A stretch of 10,229 bases of DNA, taken from the NCBI GenBank assembly GCA_039630055.1, contig JBCNVN010000033.1, positions 1 to 10,229 on the forward strand, written 5' to 3'. Below the pieces are notes generated by a model. It did no database searches, was not told where the DNA came from, and saw nothing but the letters and a program-made list of their open reading frames with translations. Positions 3,070-10,229 of the stretch are shown one piece after another (the stretch's first letter is position 1; every line of letters begins with the position of its first letter). The translations under genes were made by a program, and so were the position numbers. This stretch comes from Candidatus Caldarchaeales archaeon. GTDB lineage: Archaea > Thermoproteota > Nitrososphaeria_A > Caldarchaeales > Wolframiiraptoraceae.

Positions 3070-3413
3070 TGGGAGTATTCTGAAGAAATGGATGAGAAGG
3101 CAAAACAGATAAGAGAGATGATGATAGAGAAAGATTTGGGATATTTTGGATTATTGTTTATAAGAAAGCTTTGGAAGTGGTAAAGGAGATGAATACTCCT
3201 ACTAAGATTCTGGCCTACTCTACTCGTTTGGAATCGGGTAAAAGATATCTATATTTGGAGTGATTGGCTGGCTTACCAATCGTGATTATCATGAATAGAG
3301 ATGCTATAGAATGGATTTTGACAATTTACATAAGTGATGAAAATGGTAAGATTAAGATCCTTAACGATCTTTCCCCTCACATTGTCGATAAATTGATGAA
3401 GTTAAGATGGATT
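3070..3413 (+). pseudogene. Transaldolase-family C-terminal fragment (frameshift plus internal stop)
   Basis: Reconstruction reads ...EKDLGYFG / IIVYKKALEVVKEMNTPTKILAYSTRL...YLE*LAGLPIVIIMN...PHIVDKLMKL. There is a frameshift near 3149 and a TGA at 3261-3263; ORF 3264..3551 continues the same frame. It resembles the transaldolase C-terminal pattern G-I-A-V-x-K-K-A...K-L-L-x-A-S-x-R...E-L-A-G. Confidence 0.5.
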
Positions 3414-3763
3414 GGAAAAGAGTCATCTACCAATCGTCATGGTAATCACCAATCTCCAAATGCTATAATCGATACCTTTTTGAACACTTTCCTCGCAGCC
3501 TTCTTTTACTGCTCATGTAGTCATAGCTACTTGGAACACATTAAAACATGATATCTCATTAGTTGAAAACCGAAGCTTGTGAGATAGCTAAATGTTTGAA
3601 TTCTAGTCTTAATGACAGGTATCTTTACAATCTTCAATTTGGATTAGAACTAATCTATAATTAAGTATAGTTTTAACTATTATAGAATCCAATATCCTAT
3701 TTCACAGATTATTATTTGATGTATTATTTTAATCATTCAATAATGATTATCAAATGCATCTTA

Positions 3764-5215
3764 TTATGTTATGTCATAGTATACTTTGATGTGTTTAACT
3801 TCTAGATAATGCTTTAACCCTTCTCGACCCAAGTCACAGCCTATACCACTTTCCTTCCAACCAGGGTACGGAGCCTCAATAGTAGAAACATCAACATTGT
3901 TTATTCCTATGTTTCCTGCATCTAACATTCTCGATAGCTTCCAAGCCTTGTTTAGGTTATTGGTGTACACGTAGGCTGCTAATCCATAACGAGTGGAGTT
4001 GGCCATCTCGATCACTTCGTTTATGGTGTTGAAGGGCATTACTGGTTTAGCTGGACCGAAGGTCTCTTCCTTCATTATCTCCATATCATGATTCACATTT
4101 ACGATTATTGTCGGTTCATACCAGTATCCCTTCTTGAACTTCTCACCATCTGGTCGTTTACCTCCAATTAGGATCTTTGCACCCTTCTTGACCGCATCCT
4201 CAACATGTTCTATGACCTTGGATAGTGCCTCCTTATTACACATTGGCCCTAAATCAACATCGGGTTCCTTCAGTGGATCACCGATCTTTAATTTTTTGGT
4301 CTCCTCTACGAACAACTCTACAAATTTATCGTAAATCTTTTTCTCTACAAATATTCTATTAACCGCGTTACATATTTGACCCATGTTTCTGAAAGATCTC
4401 CTAACCGCTCCCTTTACCGCTTTCTCTAGATCTGCATCTTCAAAGACTATCATAGGTGTCTGCCCGCCAAGCTCCAAGGTCACTCTCTTCAAGTTTGATG
4501 CACATAACTCCATCACATGTTTTCCTATATCGGTTGAGCCGGTGAAACTAACCTTTCTAACTAGAGGATGAGATATGAGCGCTTCACCCACTGTCCTTCC
4601 CGGTCCAGTGATAATGTTTACTACGCCATGAGGTATACCTGCATCATGAAGACACTCGATAAATTTTATCGGTGATATAGGTGTGTATGATGGGGGTTTG
4701 GCGATTAGGGTGCATCCAGCTGCGAGGGCTGCTCCAACCTTCCATGATAAGAGCTGGACAGGATAGTTCCATGGTGTGATTGCAGCGACGACGCCTACTG
4801 GCTGCCATATCGTAATGCTCTCATATTCTTTTCTGGGTAAAGGTATTATTTCTCCATAGACTCTAAATATCTCTTCAGCAAAATATCTAAGAACATTAGC
4901 AGCATTTTTTAGTTCTTCTATAGCTTGCTTAAGCGGCTTACCTTGCTCCATAGATAGATATCTACTTATTTCACTTGCTCTTTTCTCAACTATCTCAGCA
5001 GATTTATACAATAAATCTTTTCTTTCTCCAAGAGGCTTTTGTGACCATTCTCTGAAGGCTTTATGGGCCGCTTTAACCGCTTTATCTACGTCTCCTAAAG
5101 TAGCAGATGGTACTTGAGCTATCGTATCCTCTGTTGCAGGATTTATTACATTCTCATATTTTCCGTCTGAAGATCCAACCCATTCACTATCAATCAGCAT
5201 AAAGAATTTCTCCAC
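3764..5215 (-). CDS. NAD(P)-dependent aldehyde dehydrogenase (succinate-semialdehyde/lactaldehyde dehydrogenase-like)
   Basis: 483 aa with ITPWNYP, FTGSTDIG, LELGG, catalytic Cys in GQICNA, and EETFGP. GTG start with a strong Shine-Dalgarno. Confidence 0.95.
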   Translation of the reverse strand: MEKFFMLIDSEWVGSSDGKYENVINPATEDTIAQVPSATLGDVDKAVKAAHKAFREWSQKPLGERKDLLYKSAEIVEKRASEISRYLSMEQGKPLKQAIEELKNAANVLRYFAEEIFRVYGEIIPLPRKEYESITIWQPVGVVAAITPWNYPVQLLSWKVGAALAAGCTLIAKPPSYTPISPIKFIECLHDAGIPHGVVNIITGPGRTVGEALISHPLVRKVSFTGSTDIGKHVMELCASNLKRVTLELGGQTPMIVFEDADLEKAVKGAVRRSFRNMGQICNAVNRIFVEKKIYDKFVELFVEETKKLKIGDPLKEPDVDLGPMCNKEALSKVIEHVEDAVKKGAKILIGGKRPDGEKFKKGYWYEPTIIVNVNHDMEIMKEETFGPAKPVMPFNTINEVIEMANSTRYGLAAYVYTNNLNKAWKLSRMLDAGNIGINNVDVSTIEAPYPGWKESGIGCDLGREGLKHYLEVKHIKVYYDIT

Positions 5216-5220
5216 TTCAA

Positions 5221-5228
5221 TACCTCCT
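5221..5228 (-). promoter_or_regulatory. Shine-Dalgarno sequence of the ALDH gene
   Basis: AGGAGGTA on the minus strand 5 nt upstream of the GTG start, typical of an internal gene of an archaeal operon. Confidence 0.75.
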
Positions 5229-5233
5229 TATGA

Positions 5234-5518
5234 CTATTCAATCTGCATTATCTCTTTTCCTTTTAAAATAAAGTAAACTTCTTCTAAATTATTATGCGAA
5301 TGACATGTATTTTGACATTCAAGATATTTTATTGTAAATCCTAAAGTCGATATCTTCAATGGAGATTTATAAGGCTCAATCGATCTATATGTATTTCTAA
5401 GTATATGCCCTTTCCTTTCTTTTATGGGATATCTAAGTGAACGACCACATGTATGTGATTCTATAGTGTCTATATTTCCTGCCAAGTATTTCTCAACTAT
5501 ATTTTCATTCATAGACAT
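5234..5518 (-). pseudogene. Truncated cupin-domain protein
   Basis: Ends with cupin motif 1 (CHSHNNLEEVYFILKGK) and stops a few residues later. Motif 2 is missing and only 18 nt separate it from the ALDH start. Confidence 0.65.
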
Positions 5519-5864
5519 CTATTACACTGTTATAGAAATGTAATATTTTAGTATTGTTAATCTACCATAAATAAATGTGAGATATCGAAACCCTCCATTC
5601 TGAGGAATAAATTACTAATTCATCCTCTATGGTATATGCTGCCAAATAATATAAAACTTGATTCTATAAATTGCCTAGCTAAAATATGACAAGTATTGGC
5701 AGGAAATCATATTTTCCATCTGCTTACAAGTAGGTTAAAGTTTACTGAAATTATCTAGAATCAATAATTTAACCTACATTCAATAAGAATTGTTCCTACA
5801 GATCTATTGATGTCGTAATCTTACTTAAACTCTATAGGTTCTATATTTTTATCTTTTCAAATCA

Positions 5865-6205
5865 AATGGATCTTGTTGGGTTTAGTTCTTCAATCGGCAG
5901 ACAAGCTTTGATAATTTTTAAGTTAGCTCTTCTGTAGCAAGTCTAGGTCTGTGAATGAGGTGGTCACTCTTTAATCTTATTTGCGACGATCGATGCGCCT
6001 GTTCCAGTGTAACACATGGGTATGGCGGTATCTGCTTTCCATCCGGTAGATTCTTTGCACCTTCATAAACCATATCAGGCTACGGTAGTGGGTGTCAATC
6101 TATCATGGCACTTACAGGACCATTTCGTAGCCCTGGGACTTAGATACTTGACGATGAATTTGCAACTGGGCATGATCTATCTGCACTGACGATAATTTTA
6201 GGCAT
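5865..6205 (-). pseudogene. RpiB/LacA/LacB family sugar-phosphate isomerase pseudogene
   Basis: Not in the ORF track. Fragments in changing frames: MPKIIVSAD (ATG at 6205), KSQGYEMV, PDMVYEGAK, and ADTAIPMCYTGTGASIVANKIK (CYTGTGASIVANKIK at 5970-6014). The last matches the RpiB catalytic motif C-x-T-G-x-G-x-S-I-x-A-N-K. The 3' limit is approximate. Confidence 0.8.
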
Positions 6206-6384
6206 CTGGCTTTACATCAGATTAATAGGTGAGAAAGAATTAAACATTATAGTTACCGGTTTTGAGCAATCCTTGTATGTGAAATATTCTTAAAGGACTA
6301 ATAAAATTTCTTTGTATGTAGCCAAGAGAAATGTTTTAAGAACAATCCTCAATAAGTCTTCGGATCAAAGGATTTATTTTATTT

Positions 6385-6392
6385 ATTATTAA
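6385..6392 (+). repeat. Left target-site duplication ATTATTAA
   Basis: Identical to 10175-10182 and directly abuts the left TIR. Eight bp is the usual IS6-family DR length. Confidence 0.9.
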
Positions 6393-6414
6393 GGTTCTGT
6401 TAAGTTTTCGGGGT
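6393..6414 (+). repeat. Left terminal inverted repeat GGTTCTGTTAAGTTTTCGGGGT
   Basis: 21/22 match to the reverse complement of 10153-10174. The start resembles IS257/IS6-family ends (GGTTCTGTT). Confidence 0.92.
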
Positions 6415-6435
6415 ATAAGTCCTTAGAGGATGCGA

Positions 6436-6455
6436 TGTTAGAATTCGGGGTATAA
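6436..6455 (+). repeat. Left inner (subterminal) repeat TGTTAGAATTCGGGGTATAA
   Basis: Repeats the inner part of the TIR (TTCGGGGTATAA at 6407-6418 and 6444-6455) and starts 43 nt from the element end, as does its right-end counterpart. Confidence 0.8.
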
Positions 6456-6460
6456 CACTT

Positions 6461-6472
6461 AAAGTTTAAATA
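6461..6472 (+). promoter_or_regulatory. Putative BRE-TATA promoter of the winged-helix gene
   Basis: AAAG followed by TTTAAATA (6465-6472). Standard archaeal spacing predicts a TSS near 6495-6498. Confidence 0.6.
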
Positions 6473-6495
6473 GAGTTTCGTCTTCTTTTCTTCTA

Positions 6496-6511
6496 GAGCG
6501 ATATGCCACGT
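6496..6511 (+). repeat. 16-bp direct repeat, copy 1 (GAGCGATATGCCACGT), spanning the predicted TSS and the ATG
   Basis: Exact match to 6947-6962. Confidence 0.92.
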
Positions 6512-6934
6512 AAGTTTAAAATTGAGTCTCTTGGAGAAAGAGAAGAGGATGTTGTGAAAATAGAAGTTTACGCAGATTCTATGGAAGAAGCAGTAGAGAA
6601 AGCTAAGAAAATTTTCTCCAGTCTTCAGCAGACATCCATTGCAAATATGTCGAAGAAAAGTCAACTTGCATCAAAGATTAAAGAAGTTCTCTACGAAAAA
6701 TTCAAAAATAATGAATCGTTCACCTTGCATGAAATCATGGAGAGAGTTCAAGGATTTTCTGTCTCTCCAAAAGATAATGAAAAAGAGTATAAGCGGTTTT
6801 ACGACCGGTTTTGGACTGTACTGCAGGAACTAAAGAGGGAGGGCATAGTATTTCAGAGCGGCACAATCATCCAAAGAGAAGACGGGGCGAACAAGCCGTA
6901 TAGAGTCTGGAAGCCTGTTAAAGTAGAGGGTTAG
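6503..6934 (+). CDS. Hypothetical two-domain protein with a small N-terminal beta-beta-alpha domain and a C-terminal winged helix-turn-helix
   Basis: 143 aa of normal composition with a TATA box upstream. The C-terminus FTLHEIMERV...RFWTVLQELKREGIV...PYRVWK looks like a wHTH. The N-terminus KIEVYADSMEEAVEKAKKIF recalls HicB-like or Jag_N-like small domains. Fold inferred by eye. Confidence 0.7.
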   Translation: MPRKFKIESLGEREEDVVKIEVYADSMEEAVEKAKKIFSSLQQTSIANMSKKSQLASKIKEVLYEKFKNNESFTLHEIMERVQGFSVSPKDNEKEYKRFYDRFWTVLQELKREGIVFQSGTIIQREDGANKPYRVWKPVKVEG

Positions 6935-6984
6935 TGGGGCCTAGCCGAGCGATATGCCACGTGAGACAGAATCGCTAGGCCCCA
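6935..6984 (+). ncRNA. Hairpin with a perfect 11-bp stem and a 28-nt loop carrying the 16-nt repeat
   Basis: TGGGGCCTAGC (6935-6945) pairs with GCTAGGCCCCA (6974-6984). It starts at the first base after the TAG stop. Expression as an RNA is inferred. Confidence 0.6.
6947..6962 (+). repeat. 16-bp direct repeat, copy 2, inside the hairpin loop
   Basis: Exact match to 6496-6511. Confidence 0.92.
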
Positions 6985-6987
6985 GAT

Positions 6988-7063
6988 GGGCGGGTGAGCT
7001 AACGGGAATGCGCCACCACATGGGCGTGGTGGTATTGGGGTTCAAGTCCCCACCCGCCCACCA
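6988..7063 (+). tRNA. tRNA-like element with encoded CCA and undetermined anticodon
   Basis: 76 nt. Acceptor stem GGGCGGG/CCCGCCC, T8, T-arm TGGGG-TTCAAGT-CCCCA, discriminator A, then CCA. D-loop GG is present but the D-stem is weak. The anticodon arm is a 7-bp stem CCACCAC/GTGGTGG with a 6-nt loop ATGGGC. Confidence 0.8.
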
Positions 7064-7075
7064 TAATTAATTGTG

Positions 7076-8245
7076 TTATGGCTGCTTCTTTATCTTTGCG
7101 TTTCTTTTTCGTTTTTCAGCAAGTTGGATGAGTTCCAGCCATTTGTTTTCTCCAGCGTACTTCAAGACTCCTGCCGTTTCCACCGGCGTTCTTCCATTCA
7201 GAGATATGTGAGGTTTTACGAAGTTATAATATATTCTATAGCCATCCATCAATCTCTCGGCTGCCTCCATCTTCTTCATTCCACGCATTACCTTGGTTCT
7301 GTCTTTGAATGTTCCGTGAAGCCTCTCTACTAGATTGTTGTTCGGTCTTTCTTCGAGACCTGCCAACCTGATATGTTTAACCCTCGGCCCCTTGAGTCTG
7401 TAGAACTCTTTCCTGAACGCATCTTCATAAGCTCGGAGACCGTCTGTTACAACTTCTGTTGGTAAGTTCTTAGAAGATTCTTTAGCTTTCCTGAATACTT
7501 CTCTAGCATCCGATACTTCTCTCCCTCTGCTCAGCTTTGTGGCCAATAAGTACCTCGTATCGGCGTCCATCAAGTTCCAGAGCCAGAGGTATTCTCCCCC
7601 AACCTTAACTGTGGTCTCATCAACATGCCATCTCCCAGAGGTTTCGGGTTTAAGCTGTTCTACATATCCCTTCATCAAGTCGATATACTTTCTAATCCAG
7701 TAGTAGACCGTTACATAGCTAACCTTTAATCCATGAAACTGCTTTACGTGGTCTGCTATCTTCCTAAAAGAGACCCCCTTGAAATACAGGTCTAAGGCCA
7801 GAGCGATTATCTCCGGTCTATACTTCATCTTTCTAAAAGCATCTTCCACTACTGAGAACTTTCTTCCACAGTTCTTGCACCTGTACCTTTGAACCTTGCC
7901 GTGCTTATTCTTCCTAAAGCCTATCTTCACGACCTTGTCTGAACTACAAAACCCGCAGACTGGGGATGGACATTCTAAGATGAAGCTACCCTCTTCCAGT
8001 ATTTTACTCCTTAGAGTGAGGGAGAACTCGACAGCATGGATATGCTTGCACTTAACCTTTCTATAGACGTGGTCTGGACAGCTACATACCCATCCTTCCT
8101 CGGTCTTTACGACATCGTACCAGCCATTCCCGTTCTGTGACCTGACTTTATAATAGGTGGAGCTAACCCTCCTGACTTGGTTGCCCCTAGCCAGTATTGC
8201 CAGACCTCTTAATTCACGGGAATCCATTCTCTGCAACCAATACAC
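7076..8245 (-). CDS. IS6-family DDE transposase with N-terminal SWIM zinc finger and zinc ribbon
   Basis: SWIM motif WVCSCPD...KCKHIHAV, zinc ribbon CGFC...QRYRCKNCGRKF, HTH SFRKIAD...VSYVTVYYWI, and catalytic WHVDET, VVTDG, NNLVERLH. Start is GTG 8245 or ATG 8227. Confidence 0.92.
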   Translation of the reverse strand: MYWLQRMDSRELRGLAILARGNQVRRVSSTYYKVRSQNGNGWYDVVKTEEGWVCSCPDHVYRKVKCKHIHAVEFSLTLRSKILEEGSFILECPSPVCGFCSSDKVVKIGFRKNKHGKVQRYRCKNCGRKFSVVEDAFRKMKYRPEIIALALDLYFKGVSFRKIADHVKQFHGLKVSYVTVYYWIRKYIDLMKGYVEQLKPETSGRWHVDETTVKVGGEYLWLWNLMDADTRYLLATKLSRGREVSDAREVFRKAKESSKNLPTEVVTDGLRAYEDAFRKEFYRLKGPRVKHIRLAGLEERPNNNLVERLHGTFKDRTKVMRGMKKMEAAERLMDGYRIYYNFVKPHISLNGRTPVETAGVLKYAGENKWLELIQLAEKRKRNAKIKKQP

Positions 8246-8337
8246 CTAATGTATTAGATATTTTGGATGTATTTAACTATTACATTGAATGTTAAGAAAA
8301 CCTTAAATATAGTCAATGCATTAAGTATTTTGAGAAT
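8246..8337. promoter_or_regulatory. Divergent promoter region for transposase and RHH-MTase genes
   Basis: Plus strand GAAAACC-TTAAATAT (TATA 8303-8310) before ATG 8338. Minus strand TTAAATA (8270-8276) before GTG 8245. Repeated AATGT/ACATT-like boxes are present. Confidence 0.6.
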
Positions 8338-8532
8338 ATGTCTCCTAAACCTAAGAAGTCTGATGCGGTGAAGAGGAACATAGTTTTAAAGATGGAGACT
8401 TATGAGCGTCTACAAAGATATCTTCTCGAATTGATACAGAAGCGTGGAGACCCTAGAATAACATTTGACGAAGCCATAAGCGCTTTATTAGACGAGCGCG
8501 AAGGGAGGGTTAAGGATGAGTCGGGGGACTAG
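8338..8532 (+). CDS. Small ribbon-helix-helix DNA-binding protein (archaeal VapB/CopG-like)
   Basis: 64 aa with the pattern KRNIVLKMETYERL...ITFDEAISALLD, typical of archaeal RHH proteins. It has its own TATA box and overlaps the MTase start by 17 nt. Confidence 0.75.
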   Translation: MSPKPKKSDAVKRNIVLKMETYERLQRYLLELIQKRGDPRITFDEAISALLDEREGRVKDESGD

Positions 8533-9457
8533 GACTAGAAGCTTTGGAAGCGGTAAGAGAGAAGGCCACGACTCCTCGCCTTTCTACTCCCGTAAGCTTT
8601 ACAGAGACTTCGCTCTCCCGAAGCCTAGACCTGGAGACCTTGCGGAGAACGAGGTTCCCGAAAAGTTCTTGGACAAGGTGCTCTTGGGGGATGCGAAGAG
8701 CATTCTGAGAGAGCTTCCGGACAGATGCGTCCACCTAATGGTTACTTCGCCTCCATACAATGTTGGCAAGGAGTACGATGAAGATTTAGCGCTGGGAGAG
8801 TACCTCGACTTCGTAGAAGAAGTGATGAAGGAGGTTTACCGAGTCCTGGTCTTCGGAGGCAGGGTGTGCTTCAACGTGGCCAACCTCGGCAGGAAGCCGT
8901 ACATACCGCTCCACGCATACCTGATAGAGAGGTTCGAGCAGATAGGGTTCTTGATAAGAGGAGAGATAATATGGTACAAGGGCGATGCTGTGGCCGGCTC
9001 TTCTACTGCGTGGGGTTCTTGGCTGTCCGCAGTCAATCCAACGCTGAGAGATGTCCACGAATATATCTTGGTCTTTTCAAAAGGCGGGTTCTCTAGAGAA
9101 AGGAGCGCTGGGAAGGAGGATACTATAGCGAGAGACGAATTCATAGAGTTTACGAAGAGCGTGTGGAAATTCCCTCCAGAATCTGCTAGCAGGGTAGGTC
9201 ATCCCGCACCGTTTCCCGTAGAGCTTCCATATAGATGTATACAGTTGTATACGTTTAAAGGAGACGTTATTTTAGATCCGTTCGTGGGCGTGGGAACTAC
9301 TTGTATCGCTGCAATAATAAGCGGGAGGCACTTCATTGGAATAGATGCTGATCCAAAGTACGTAGAGAGAGCGAGGAAAAGGATAGAGAACCTTCTATTT
9401 CAGCAAACCCTCTCGGGCGAGACAGGTTTTGCAAACCTCGACAGATATGGGATATAA
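8516..9457 (+). CDS. Site-specific DNA methyltransferase, beta class, probably N4-cytosine
   Basis: Motif IV VTSPPYN precedes HPAPFP and motif I LDPFVGVGTT, the beta order. SPPY is typical of m4C MTases. Confidence 0.92.
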   Translation: MSRGTRTRSFGSGKREGHDSSPFYSRKLYRDFALPKPRPGDLAENEVPEKFLDKVLLGDAKSILRELPDRCVHLMVTSPPYNVGKEYDEDLALGEYLDFVEEVMKEVYRVLVFGGRVCFNVANLGRKPYIPLHAYLIERFEQIGFLIRGEIIWYKGDAVAGSSTAWGSWLSAVNPTLRDVHEYILVFSKGGFSRERSAGKEDTIARDEFIEFTKSVWKFPPESASRVGHPAPFPVELPYRCIQLYTFKGDVILDPFVGVGTTCIAAIISGRHFIGIDADPKYVERARKRIENLLFQQTLSGETGFANLDRYGI

Positions 9458-9463
9458 AGTGAA

Positions 9464-10081
9464 TTATGGATGCTCTGTCTTTAAGCTGTCCGCAAGCTTT
9501 GCCACCATCTCGTAGAATGCGTCTAGGTATCTTTCTCTAGTAATCTCACCAGAGACTTTCGGGAAGGCGATATAGTTTCCTTTTTCTACCGCTTTCTGTA
9601 CAAGTTTTTCTACCGCTCCCCTCTTTATTCCAAACCCTCTCGGATTCGTTTTATTGCTAGGTATCCACCAGAATTTATTAAAGTTTAACTCCTTTTTCAC
9701 CGACTCTATATCATCCAATTCGAAGACGTATATGCCTTCCTCGATTACGTAGACGATCGGGCTTTTGAACTTAAACCTCTTCACTCTCTCCTTGGATGGA
9801 AAACCATTCCACGCAACCTTTACTACCTCCACGTCTTTAGCTGTCTTGAAGCTATATGCTTTCTTCTCCTCACCTATACATAAGTAGAAGTCCACCTTCC
9901 TCCCTAATTGTTCTCCGGGCTCCTCTACTACTCCAAGCTTGTTTAAGGTTGCTATGAACAACTCTTGTTTCCTCACTCCAACATCAGGGGTCTTGATGAC
10001 CTCTCCAAGAACTTTAAATCCCCTCGCCAAAAACTCTACAACGTCTTGACGATCCTTGAGTAAACATATTAACGAGTCCAT
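9464..10081 (-). CDS. Putative Type II restriction endonuclease, ThaI-like PD-(D/E)xK family
   Basis: Convergent with the MTase (6-nt gap). Contains DVGVRKQE, KVD...YSFKT, VKVAW, GIYVF and IPSNKTNPRGFGI, which recall ThaI-family motifs (EVG..RE, VD...SIKT, VKLIW, TNPRG) as remembered, not searched. Confidence 0.72.
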   Translation of the reverse strand: MDSLICLLKDRQDVVEFLARGFKVLGEVIKTPDVGVRKQELFIATLNKLGVVEEPGEQLGRKVDFYLCIGEEKKAYSFKTAKDVEVVKVAWNGFPSKERVKRFKFKSPIVYVIEEGIYVFELDDIESVKKELNFNKFWWIPSNKTNPRGFGIKRGAVEKLVQKAVEKGNYIAFPKVSGEITRERYLDAFYEMVAKLADSLKTEHP

Positions 10082-10104
10082 GCATTATACAGGCGCATCC
10101 AAAA

Positions 10105-10111
10105 ATATAAA
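10105..10111 (-). promoter_or_regulatory. Putative TATA box for the endonuclease gene
   Basis: TTTATAT on the minus strand 24-30 nt upstream of ATG 10081, directly next to the right inner repeat. Confidence 0.5.
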
Positions 10112-10131
10112 TAATACCCCGGATTTTAACA
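10112..10131 (-). repeat. Right inner (subterminal) repeat TGTTAAAATCCGGGGTATTA
   Basis: 17/20 identical to the left inner repeat 6436-6455, in inverted orientation, with the same 43-nt offset from the end. Confidence 0.8.
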
Positions 10132-10152
10132 CATCTCACTTGAACCTCAGAA

Positions 10153-10174
10153 ACCCCGAAAATTTAACAGAACC
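10153..10174 (-). repeat. Right terminal inverted repeat GGTTCTGTTAAATTTTCGGGGT
   Basis: 21/22 match to 6393-6414. Confidence 0.92.
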
Positions 10175-10182
10175 ATTATTAA
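10175..10182 (+). repeat. Right target-site duplication ATTATTAA
   Basis: Identical to 6385-6392. Confidence 0.9.
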
Positions 10183-10229
10183 ATATACTAAAATACTAAA
10201 AACTTTAAATTTTTTATTAAATAACAACT

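Follow-up and report, generated by a model that had tools for sequence, protein, structure and literature searches.

In IS10/Tn10, RNA-OUT pairs through the loop of its hairpin with the 5'-terminal region of RNA-IN, start codon included, and blocks translation of RNA-IN, and guide RNAs are known from other insertion sequences, namely the bridge RNA of IS110 and the omega RNA of IS200/IS605. Members of the IS6 family are described in a review (PMC7986276) as 0.7-0.9 kb long with 8-bp target repeats, and only one member (ISDsp3) is named there as having a passenger gene. Here we describe a 3,782-bp IS6-family cargo transposon (6393-10174) of a Candidatus Caldarchaeales archaeon (GenBank assembly GCA_039630055.1), within which an exact 16-nt sequence, GAGCGATATGCCACGT, occurs twice: once across the predicted leader and start codon of a small orphan gene, ORF143, and once in the loop of a hairpin that separates this gene from a tRNA-like gene. 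The stretch of DNA analysed, hereafter the window, is the whole of contig JBCNVN010000033.1 (10,229 nt; contig C27 of the 80 contigs in the host assembly), and unless a different locus is named all positions refer to it. The repeat had been singled out in an earlier reading of the sequence (the original prediction), from which the transposon that carries both copies was absent.

A repeat shared by a gene's predicted leader and a hairpin loop

The two copies of GAGCGATATGCCACGT are exact and stand at 6496-6511 and 6947-6962, 451 nt apart, where the original prediction had placed them. No third match with up to three mismatches was found on either strand of the window, and two matches were obtained in none of 200 dinucleotide shuffles. 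With one mismatch allowed, the repeat grows to 19 nt (6496-6514 and 6947-6965). The whole 1.54-Mb assembly, searched with up to two mismatches, contains these two copies only and none on the reverse strand, and the three single matches in viral contigs have unrelated flanks and were taken as chance. The flanks were compared over 60 nt on each side: 26 of 500 shuffles scored equally well upstream and 367 of 500 downstream. As the flanks are not significantly alike, the repeat is a sharply bounded block and not the core of an old segmental duplication. The tetranucleotide CTAG does occur at 6493-6496 and at 6941-6944, as had been pointed out, but it is not enriched in the window (31 occurrences against 36 expected from base composition) and was dropped as a signal common to both copies. 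The repeat can be said to bracket the gene in a restricted sense only, as copy 1 overlaps the start of the gene and contains its ATG (6503); copy 2 begins 13 nt past the stop codon of ORF143 and lies within the hairpin loop.

ORF143 (6503-6934, plus strand, stop codon 6932-6934) is preceded by a TATA-like box, TTTAAATA (6465-6472, plus strand), which on reading of the sequence is assigned to a predicted inward promoter, P1, borne by the left end of the transposon, and which ends 23 nt ahead of copy 1. From the position of this box and the usual archaeal spacing between TATA box and transcription start, the ORF143 transcript is predicted to start at about 6496, where the repeat begins, and copy 1 (6496-6511, plus strand) would then constitute a 7-nt leader, the start codon and the following 6 nt of the mRNA. 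The encoded 143-aa protein is an orphan, the C-terminal half of which is probably a winged helix. A word search of 5.8 G proteins and a HMMER search over 1.84 G representatives each returned the protein itself only, no relatives were found in viral contigs, and at the DNA level the region 6300-7075 gave only matches of at most 35 nt in 60 related genomes. The AF2 single-sequence model (pLDDT 79) consists of a beta-hairpin and a long helix followed by a helix-helix-helix-strand-strand unit; Foldseek gave weak matches to winged helices (PadR best with E 0.038, then Stf76 and F-112), the structural neighbours in the Atlas carry HTH_24/MarR (TM 0.42-0.54), and there was no match to a helix-turn-helix (HTH) family in Pfam. 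That ORF143 is a winged-HTH (wHTH) gene, as first proposed, is plausible on the predicted model.

Downstream of ORF143 lies a GC hairpin (6936-6983) with a 10-bp stem, a 28-nt loop and the arms GGGGCCTAGC (6936-6945) and GCTAGGCCCC (6974-6983), and copy 2 (6947-6962, plus strand) forms the 5' part of the loop. Because the stem is perfectly Watson-Crick, the hairpin would form on either strand; the fold of 6930-7070 has a z of -3.7 compared with shuffles. Four bases past the hairpin begins the tRNA-like gene (6988-7063, plus strand, 76 nt), which has a 7-bp acceptor stem, a canonical T arm and T loop, G18G19, U8, A14 and an encoded CCA. Its anticodon loop is aberrant (8 nt, or 6 nt with an extended stem), ARAGORN reported it as tRNA-??? 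with a 2-nt anticodon, and the Rfam tRNA model (RF00005) gave no match at E<=1; no close paralogue was found in the host genome, and a 20-mer from its anticodon arm had 0 matches in viral contigs. From these features the gene reads as tRNA-derived and not as a normal decoder; it may serve as a scaffold, as a site at which RNase P cuts so that the mRNA ends in the hairpin, or in some other way. Termination at oligo-T runs is known in archaea, and two T5 runs at 7105-7116 (plus strand) are predicted to be the likely terminator of the transcript of ORF143 and the tRNA-like gene.

Two side observations concern tRNA sequences outside this module. In the host genome, ARAGORN found 42 tRNA genes with introns allowed, most of them intron-bearing and several with introns at non-canonical positions. 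In the window, 19 nt at 6013-6031 are 84% like the anticodon arm of the tRNA-like gene (7017-7035), which may be chance or the stump of an older element; they lie in a region of about 870 bp (5519-6384), between a 94-aa open reading frame (ORF; 5234-5518, minus strand) and the transposon, that contains no ORF longer than 57 aa.

An equivalent match of different sequence in a related element

Loci with relatives of the transposase were collected from several sources (n=69: 2 from the genome collection, 32 from metagenomes, 3 from viral contigs, 29+2 from genome searches and 1 in the order). Transposase relatives occurred in 2 of 76 genomes of the order, the host genome included, in 36 of 401 genomes of the phylum (best identity 48%) and in 3 of 66 genomes of a Hadesarchaea-type phylum, and a second sampling of the phylum gave the same sites. 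ARAGORN found no tRNA-like gene beside the transposase in the loci from the order, the phylum and the Hadesarchaea-type phylum, and one in 3 of the 69 loci, all of them metagenome contigs (L033, L034 and L035); many of the 69 loci are short contigs, so that absence carries little weight. Patterns made from the end repeats gave 0 and 31 matches in viral contigs, and none of the 31 lies beside a transposase relative or a tRNA.

When 67 comparison loci were screened for exact direct repeats of at least 13 nt, only L035 had the layout of the window; a 14-mer in L068 was considered as an equivalent repeat and rejected, as it sits in coding sequence. The transposase of L035 is 54% identical to that of the window, and the order of its features is the same, i.e., transposon end (end repeat 2224-2201), TATA-like box (TTTTTATA, 2153-2146), a 193-aa ORF starting from a GTG at 2112, a hairpin with a 9-bp GC stem (1577-1569 / 1532-1524), a tRNA-like gene (1516-1440, minus strand) and the convergent transposase. 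The structure model of the ORF has a pLDDT of 51, too low to be of use, and ORF143 aligns with the ORF in BLASTP at E 1.3. L035 contains an exact 18-mer at 2126-2109 (leader and GTG) and at 1570-1553 (hairpin loop), the first copy spanning approximately the predicted start site through the GTG and the second lying directly past the 5' arm of the hairpin. This 18-mer is unrelated to the 16-mer of the window, and among 137 loci each of the two is confined to its own element. This relative, which keeps the gene position, the hairpin and the tRNA-like gene, therefore has an exact repeat of different sequence at both places, and the loss of the repeat from such relatives, by which the original prediction was to be refuted, is not what was observed.

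The two remaining loci were informative to different degrees. L034 has the convergent layout with a 12-bp hairpin, but its ORF would start about four codons beyond the end of the contig, and the leader lies outside. In L033, the ORF and the tRNA-like gene precede the transposase and are read in the same direction, the tRNA-like gene begins 8 nt past the stop codon of the ORF, and neither a hairpin nor a repeat of the leader of at least 10 nt on either strand was found. The match between leader and loop is thus present in both of the two testable hairpin-bearing modules and absent in the one module without a hairpin. That it is kept while its sequence is wholly replaced excludes chance as an explanation, in line with the shuffles, and makes a one-off scar very unlikely; all that speaks for a chance repeat is that short repeats do occur. 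Taken as sequences, leader and loop co-vary; the repeat is non-random and, in our view, almost certainly functional.

The four tRNA-like genes (window 6988-7063; L034 1471-1545, minus strand; L035 1440-1516, minus strand; L033 985-1059, plus strand) all keep the tRNA core (U8, A14, G18G19, T loop), three of the four have an encoded CCA, and all have enlarged anticodon loops. The loops of L034 and L035 read xTTGGTAA and resemble a Thr(GGU) loop with one additional base before U33, and that of the window contains GGG. The acceptor stems differ, so the genes are not simple copies of one another, and the anticodon-loop sequences differ among the four as well.

The original prediction had also raised the possibility that the repeats are scars of recombination or capture. 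In this case ORF143 would be a 451-bp cassette inserted between promoter and tRNA-like gene by site-specific or microhomology-mediated recombination, with duplication of a 16-bp core. A direct repeat flanking a single small orphan gene would fit such an event, as would the fact that the module ORFs differ between elements. However, the hairpin arms pair across copy 2, and nothing like the 5' arm stands before copy 1, which moreover includes the gene's own start codon; no recombinase family was found among the 10 window ORFs scanned; and the layout of L035 with a different exact sequence would require the same accident twice. The region is present in two hot-spring metagenome runs (X1, X2), and their contigs contain no joint corresponding to a 451-bp deletion, at the low depth available (over 6821-7843, X1 has a depth of about 4 and X2 of 0). 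The only joint seen removes the whole 3.8-kb transposon: in X2, a contig of 2,380 nt with a depth of 9.6 joins 6392 to 10186 with four letters between them and so lacks, to within 1 nt, the transposon plus one copy of the duplicated octamer; the depth of the transposon interior is about 3-4. This empty site indicates that the insertion is polymorphic in the population. A scar origin is accordingly given very little probability.

A proposed antisense pairing and competing explanations

The reading that we prefer, tentatively and with less than an even chance, is RNA base pairing, in which a hairpin on the transposase strand with an anti-leader in its loop would block translation of ORF143. The promoter at the transposon end would start the ORF143 mRNA with copy 1 at its 5' end, and an RNA from the transposase strand, arising either by read-through of the transposase mRNA or as a small RNA that starts at the tRNA-like boundary, would run through the complement of the tRNA-like gene and fold into the same hairpin. 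On this strand the loop of the hairpin would be the perfect complement of the ORF143 leader and start codon, and its pairing with the 5' end of the mRNA would block translation in the manner of RNA-OUT and RNA-IN of IS10, coupling the cargo regulator to transcription of the transposase strand. We infer the transcription starts, the antisense RNA, the pairing and the effect of the pairing from the arrangement of the sequence.

Three properties of the locus are consistent with such pairing. First, neither the 16-mer nor the 18-mer is palindromic or shows dyad symmetry when read as sequence, and no reverse-complement copy of at least 9 nt was found in the window or in L035, so that the complementary strand of one of the copies must be the partner. 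An exact, non-palindromic, sharply bounded and element-specific match that runs from the predicted 5' end of an mRNA and includes its start codon is the pattern to be expected of a base-pairing partner, not of a protein site. Second, if the transposase strand is transcribed, the complementarity to the predicted mRNA 5' end and start codon is complete, over 16 nt in the window and over 18 nt in L035, and the anti-leader directly precedes the 3' arm of the hairpin on this strand (in L035, 12 nt of it next to the 3' arm are predicted to be unpaired). Third, sources for the RNA can be proposed. In the window, the transposase strand has no run of at least four T from the transposase stop (7076) as far as 6785, and since an oligo-T terminator is lacking there, transposase read-through would include the hairpin. 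In addition, a TATA-like octamer precedes the complement of the tRNA-like 3' end by 21-25 nt in each of the three convergent modules, so that a dedicated small RNA from the tRNA-like boundary is possible in all of them: in the window it is the weak AGATAAAG (7088-7095, minus strand, found by sequence reading), a candidate promoter of the proposed antisense RNA that lies 24 nt before this point; the equivalents in the other two are stronger, with a perfect TTTAAATA at 25 nt in L034, where it comes after T6/T5 runs that follow the transposase, and TTTCATATA at 21 nt in L035.

Several observations weigh against antisense pairing. The match is seen in two elements only, and none of the sequencing runs listed for the stretch is an RNA run. 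In L035, the anti-leader is immediately preceded on the transposase strand by a T5 run (1542-1546), at which the RNA could end early, and in L034 transcription of the transposase would stop at the T6/T5 runs without reaching the module, so that a separate promoter is needed. In the window, the candidate TATA box on the transposase strand is weak, and the minus-strand fold sequesters about half of the anti-leader in an inner stem. The T loop, D loop and CCA of the tRNA-like gene belong to the ORF strand and not to the proposed antisense RNA. Finally, copy 1 of both elements continues past the exact match with A where copy 2 has G (window 6512/6963; L035 2108/1552 and 2107/1551), which would give an A-C mismatch in the antisense model but a G-U pair if the sense loop pairs with the complement of copy 1, a small hint in favour of the latter.

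Under this alternative, which we consider improbable, the active loop would be that of the sense strand, and copy 2 within the ORF143 transcript would pair with the complement of copy 1, either as template DNA at the end-borne promoter (a guide-like repression that senses copy number) or as a cis-antisense RNA that would be sponged. The sense RNA almost certainly exists: no T run lies between 6496 and 7105 outside coding sequence, and the T5 runs that resemble a terminator are located downstream of the tRNA-like gene. Copy 2 is mostly unpaired in the sense fold of the window and has 12 unpaired nt in L035, and with G-U or G-T pairs at the A/G positions past the match the pairing would lengthen to 19 and 20 bp. 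On the other hand, no RNA-guided DNA-binding effector is evident, ORF143 has no known guide-binding fold, no convincing cis-antisense promoter was seen on reading the sequence, and the hint from G-U pairs consists of three positions noticed post hoc. Even less probable in our judgement is a programmable guide made of the hairpin and the tRNA-like RNA, in which the 16-18-nt loop would recognize the element's own end-borne promoter or leader, perhaps together with the winged-helix protein. If it were true, archaeal IS6-type cargo transposons would have an RNA-based control that senses copy number, and the RNA would be a transposon guide of a new kind, with a tRNA scaffold and outside the IS110 and TnpB lineages. 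What we retain of the RNA-guide idea of the original prediction is, in a modified form, the base pairing with the mRNA leader of our preferred reading.

The twin operators that had been suggested for the wHTH protein are a reasonable alternative, less probable than antisense pairing. The winged-helix protein encoded by ORF143 would bind the 16-nt sequence at the start of its own gene (autorepression) and again before the tRNA-like gene, the second copy being bound either as DNA (operator or roadblock) or as RNA, in which case the leader would mimic the loop in a manner similar to the autoregulation of ribosomal proteins. In favour of this reading, ORF143 is predicted, on weak structural matches, to have a winged-helix-like C-terminal half. 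Archaeal repressors commonly sit at the transcription start site, and copy 1 overlaps the predicted one; a further TATA-like box, TTAAAGTA, ends 21 nt before copy 2, which might therefore be a start site too. However, the spacing of such a second box is inconsistent (21 nt in the window, 15 nt in L035), and in L033 the tRNA-like gene is only 8 nt past the ORF stop, thus co-transcribed and in no need of a second promoter. Proteins and repeats both differ between the elements, as would be expected if a protein and its site co-evolve, but the 16-mer and the 18-mer lack dyad symmetry, and a protein site does not usually need copies that agree at every one of 16 or 18 positions and end abruptly, as those of the two diverged elements do.

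Two other possibilities were considered and dropped. In the window, a second ORF could begin at copy 2 and run for 38 codons, but its counterpart in L035 has 3, so it is not conserved. No bulge-helix-bulge splice motif was seen near the copies when the folds were read.

The cargo transposon and its relation to known systems

The transposon is flanked by an 8-bp target-site duplication, ATTATTAA, at 6385-6392 and, as the same octamer by sequence reading, at 10175-10182. The left terminal inverted repeat (6393-6453, plus strand) starts with GGTTCTGTTAAGTTTTCGGGGT and has a second CGGGGTAT box, and the right one (10114-10174, minus strand) starts with GGTTCTGTTAAATTTTCGGGGT and has its own inward TATA-like box. 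The sequence GGTTCTGTTAA(G/A)TTTTCGGGGT is found at 6393 and, inverted, at 10174, the inverted-repeat pairs 6380-6414 / 10153-10187 and 6436-6453 / 10114-10131 are 83% and 89% identical, respectively, and in BLAST 6373-6453 matches 10114-10192 on the minus strand. Altogether, the two ends (6393-6472 and, on the minus strand, 10174-10095) are alike over about 80 nt, each with two CGGGG boxes and an inward TATA-like box, and both appear, to judge from these boxes, to drive cargo genes inward. The box of the right end would yield a leaderless mRNA for the restriction enzyme (ATG 10081). The insertion site is AT-rich (TTATTAA|ATATAC), with TTTAAAT 20 nt to the right, and no further copies of the transposon were found in the host genome.

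From the left, the cargo consists of ORF143, the hairpin, the tRNA-like gene, the transposase on the opposite strand, a 64-aa ORF, a methyltransferase and a restriction enzyme. The transposase (7076-8245, minus strand, 389 aa) is an IS6-family DDE transposase with an N-terminal zinc-finger extension (NCBIfam NF033587, 155.8 bits with a cutoff of 125; Pfam DDE_Tnp_IS240, 3.3e-23); it converges on the ORF143 module, and its stop codon (7076) is 12 nt from the 3' end of the tRNA-like gene. The 64-aa ORF (8338-8532, plus strand) overlaps the start of the methylase and matched no family; from its position alone it is possibly a controller protein. The type II N6/N4 DNA methyltransferase (8516-9457, plus strand; Pfam N6_N4_Mtase 4e-45, PADLOC MTase_II 2.3e-138) and the 205-aa type II restriction endonuclease (9464-10081, minus strand; PADLOC REase_II 8.4e-21) form a complete, convergent type II restriction-modification pair.

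Other elements among the loci also carry cargo. The element of L033 (487-2509) is complete, about 2 kb long, flanked by GAACTCAG and ends in GGTTCTGTT; it carries a 129-aa ORF, the tRNA-like gene, the transposase and, on the opposite strand, a 58-aa ribbon-helix-helix-like ORF, and an inward TATA-like box at its right end would read antisense into the transposase gene. L031, from a Bathyarchaeia metagenome-assembled genome, contains a 3.1-kb IS6-like element (3264-6404) that ends in GGTTCTGTT and is flanked by an 8-bp duplication (CCGCATTT); it carries several passenger ORFs but lacks a tRNA-like gene. In L031 (1900-2700) and in the metagenome contig L059 (1-560), arrays of tandem repeats of about 69 nt adjoin the transposon and are probably a repetitive coding region.

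In the literature, no description of archaeal IS6-family elements with tRNA-like genes was found, a search on tRNA-like genes, insertion sequences and antisense yielded nothing fitting by title or abstract among the papers listed, and one on expanded anticodon loops nothing relevant. If antisense pairing is correct, it would add to a small number of defined post-transcriptional controls known for archaeal mobile elements and would give the module of hairpin and tRNA-like gene a function, and the circuit is small enough to be tested directly by compensatory mutations.

IS6 elements have been described as minimal 0.8-kb units, and this 3.8-kb member adds to the transposase a restriction-modification pair and a module of protein, hairpin and tRNA-like gene. 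It has the transposase type, the terminal inverted repeats and the 8-bp duplication of the family, but not the length of about 0.8 kb with the transposase as sole gene. Compared with the IS6/IS26 family as a published review portrays it, the IS6-type DDE transposase, the terminal inverted repeats starting with GG and the 8-bp duplication are shared, and longer transposases with a zinc finger exist in its clade h; the differences are that the element is 3,782 bp long and has six extra genes or RNA genes as opposed to a single ORF in 0.7-0.9 kb (PMC7986276). Its ends, alike over about 80 bp with an inward promoter-like box on each, are different as well. From these features the element is an unusually large, cargo-carrying member of IS6.

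With the guide RNAs of insertion sequences (IS110 bridge RNA, omega RNA) the locus has in common a structured RNA encoded by the element and a 16-18-nt, element-specific loop segment. It differs in that the sole transposase is an IS6 DDE enzyme, with no IS110 recombinase or TnpB/IscB nuclease, and in that the loop matches the element's own mRNA leader and not a target site or the element ends, with no known partner protein. MALAT1/mascRNA (RF01684) resembles the module in that a tRNA-like fold directly follows another RNA and in that RNase P cleavage would turn the hairpin into the 3' terminus of the mRNA; it belongs, however, to another domain of life, and the Rfam match is sub-threshold (24.8 bits compared with a gathering score of 42.5) and driven by the T arm. 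The resemblance to IS10 RNA-IN/RNA-OUT lies in a transposon-borne hairpin loop that is the complement of an mRNA of the element at its 5' end and start codon, the RNA being a predicted one here. The two RNAs of IS10 come from overlapping stretches of a single locus, and it is the transposase mRNA that is targeted, whereas here the complement is 451 nt away, the target would be a cargo gene and the host is an archaeon. Control by sequence match is thus of a known kind among transposons; new here, as read from the two elements, is the match between a hairpin loop and the leader of the gene in the same module, a match in which both sides change together. It points to a sequence-programmed control circuit, most simply antisense, in a group of archaeal transposons.

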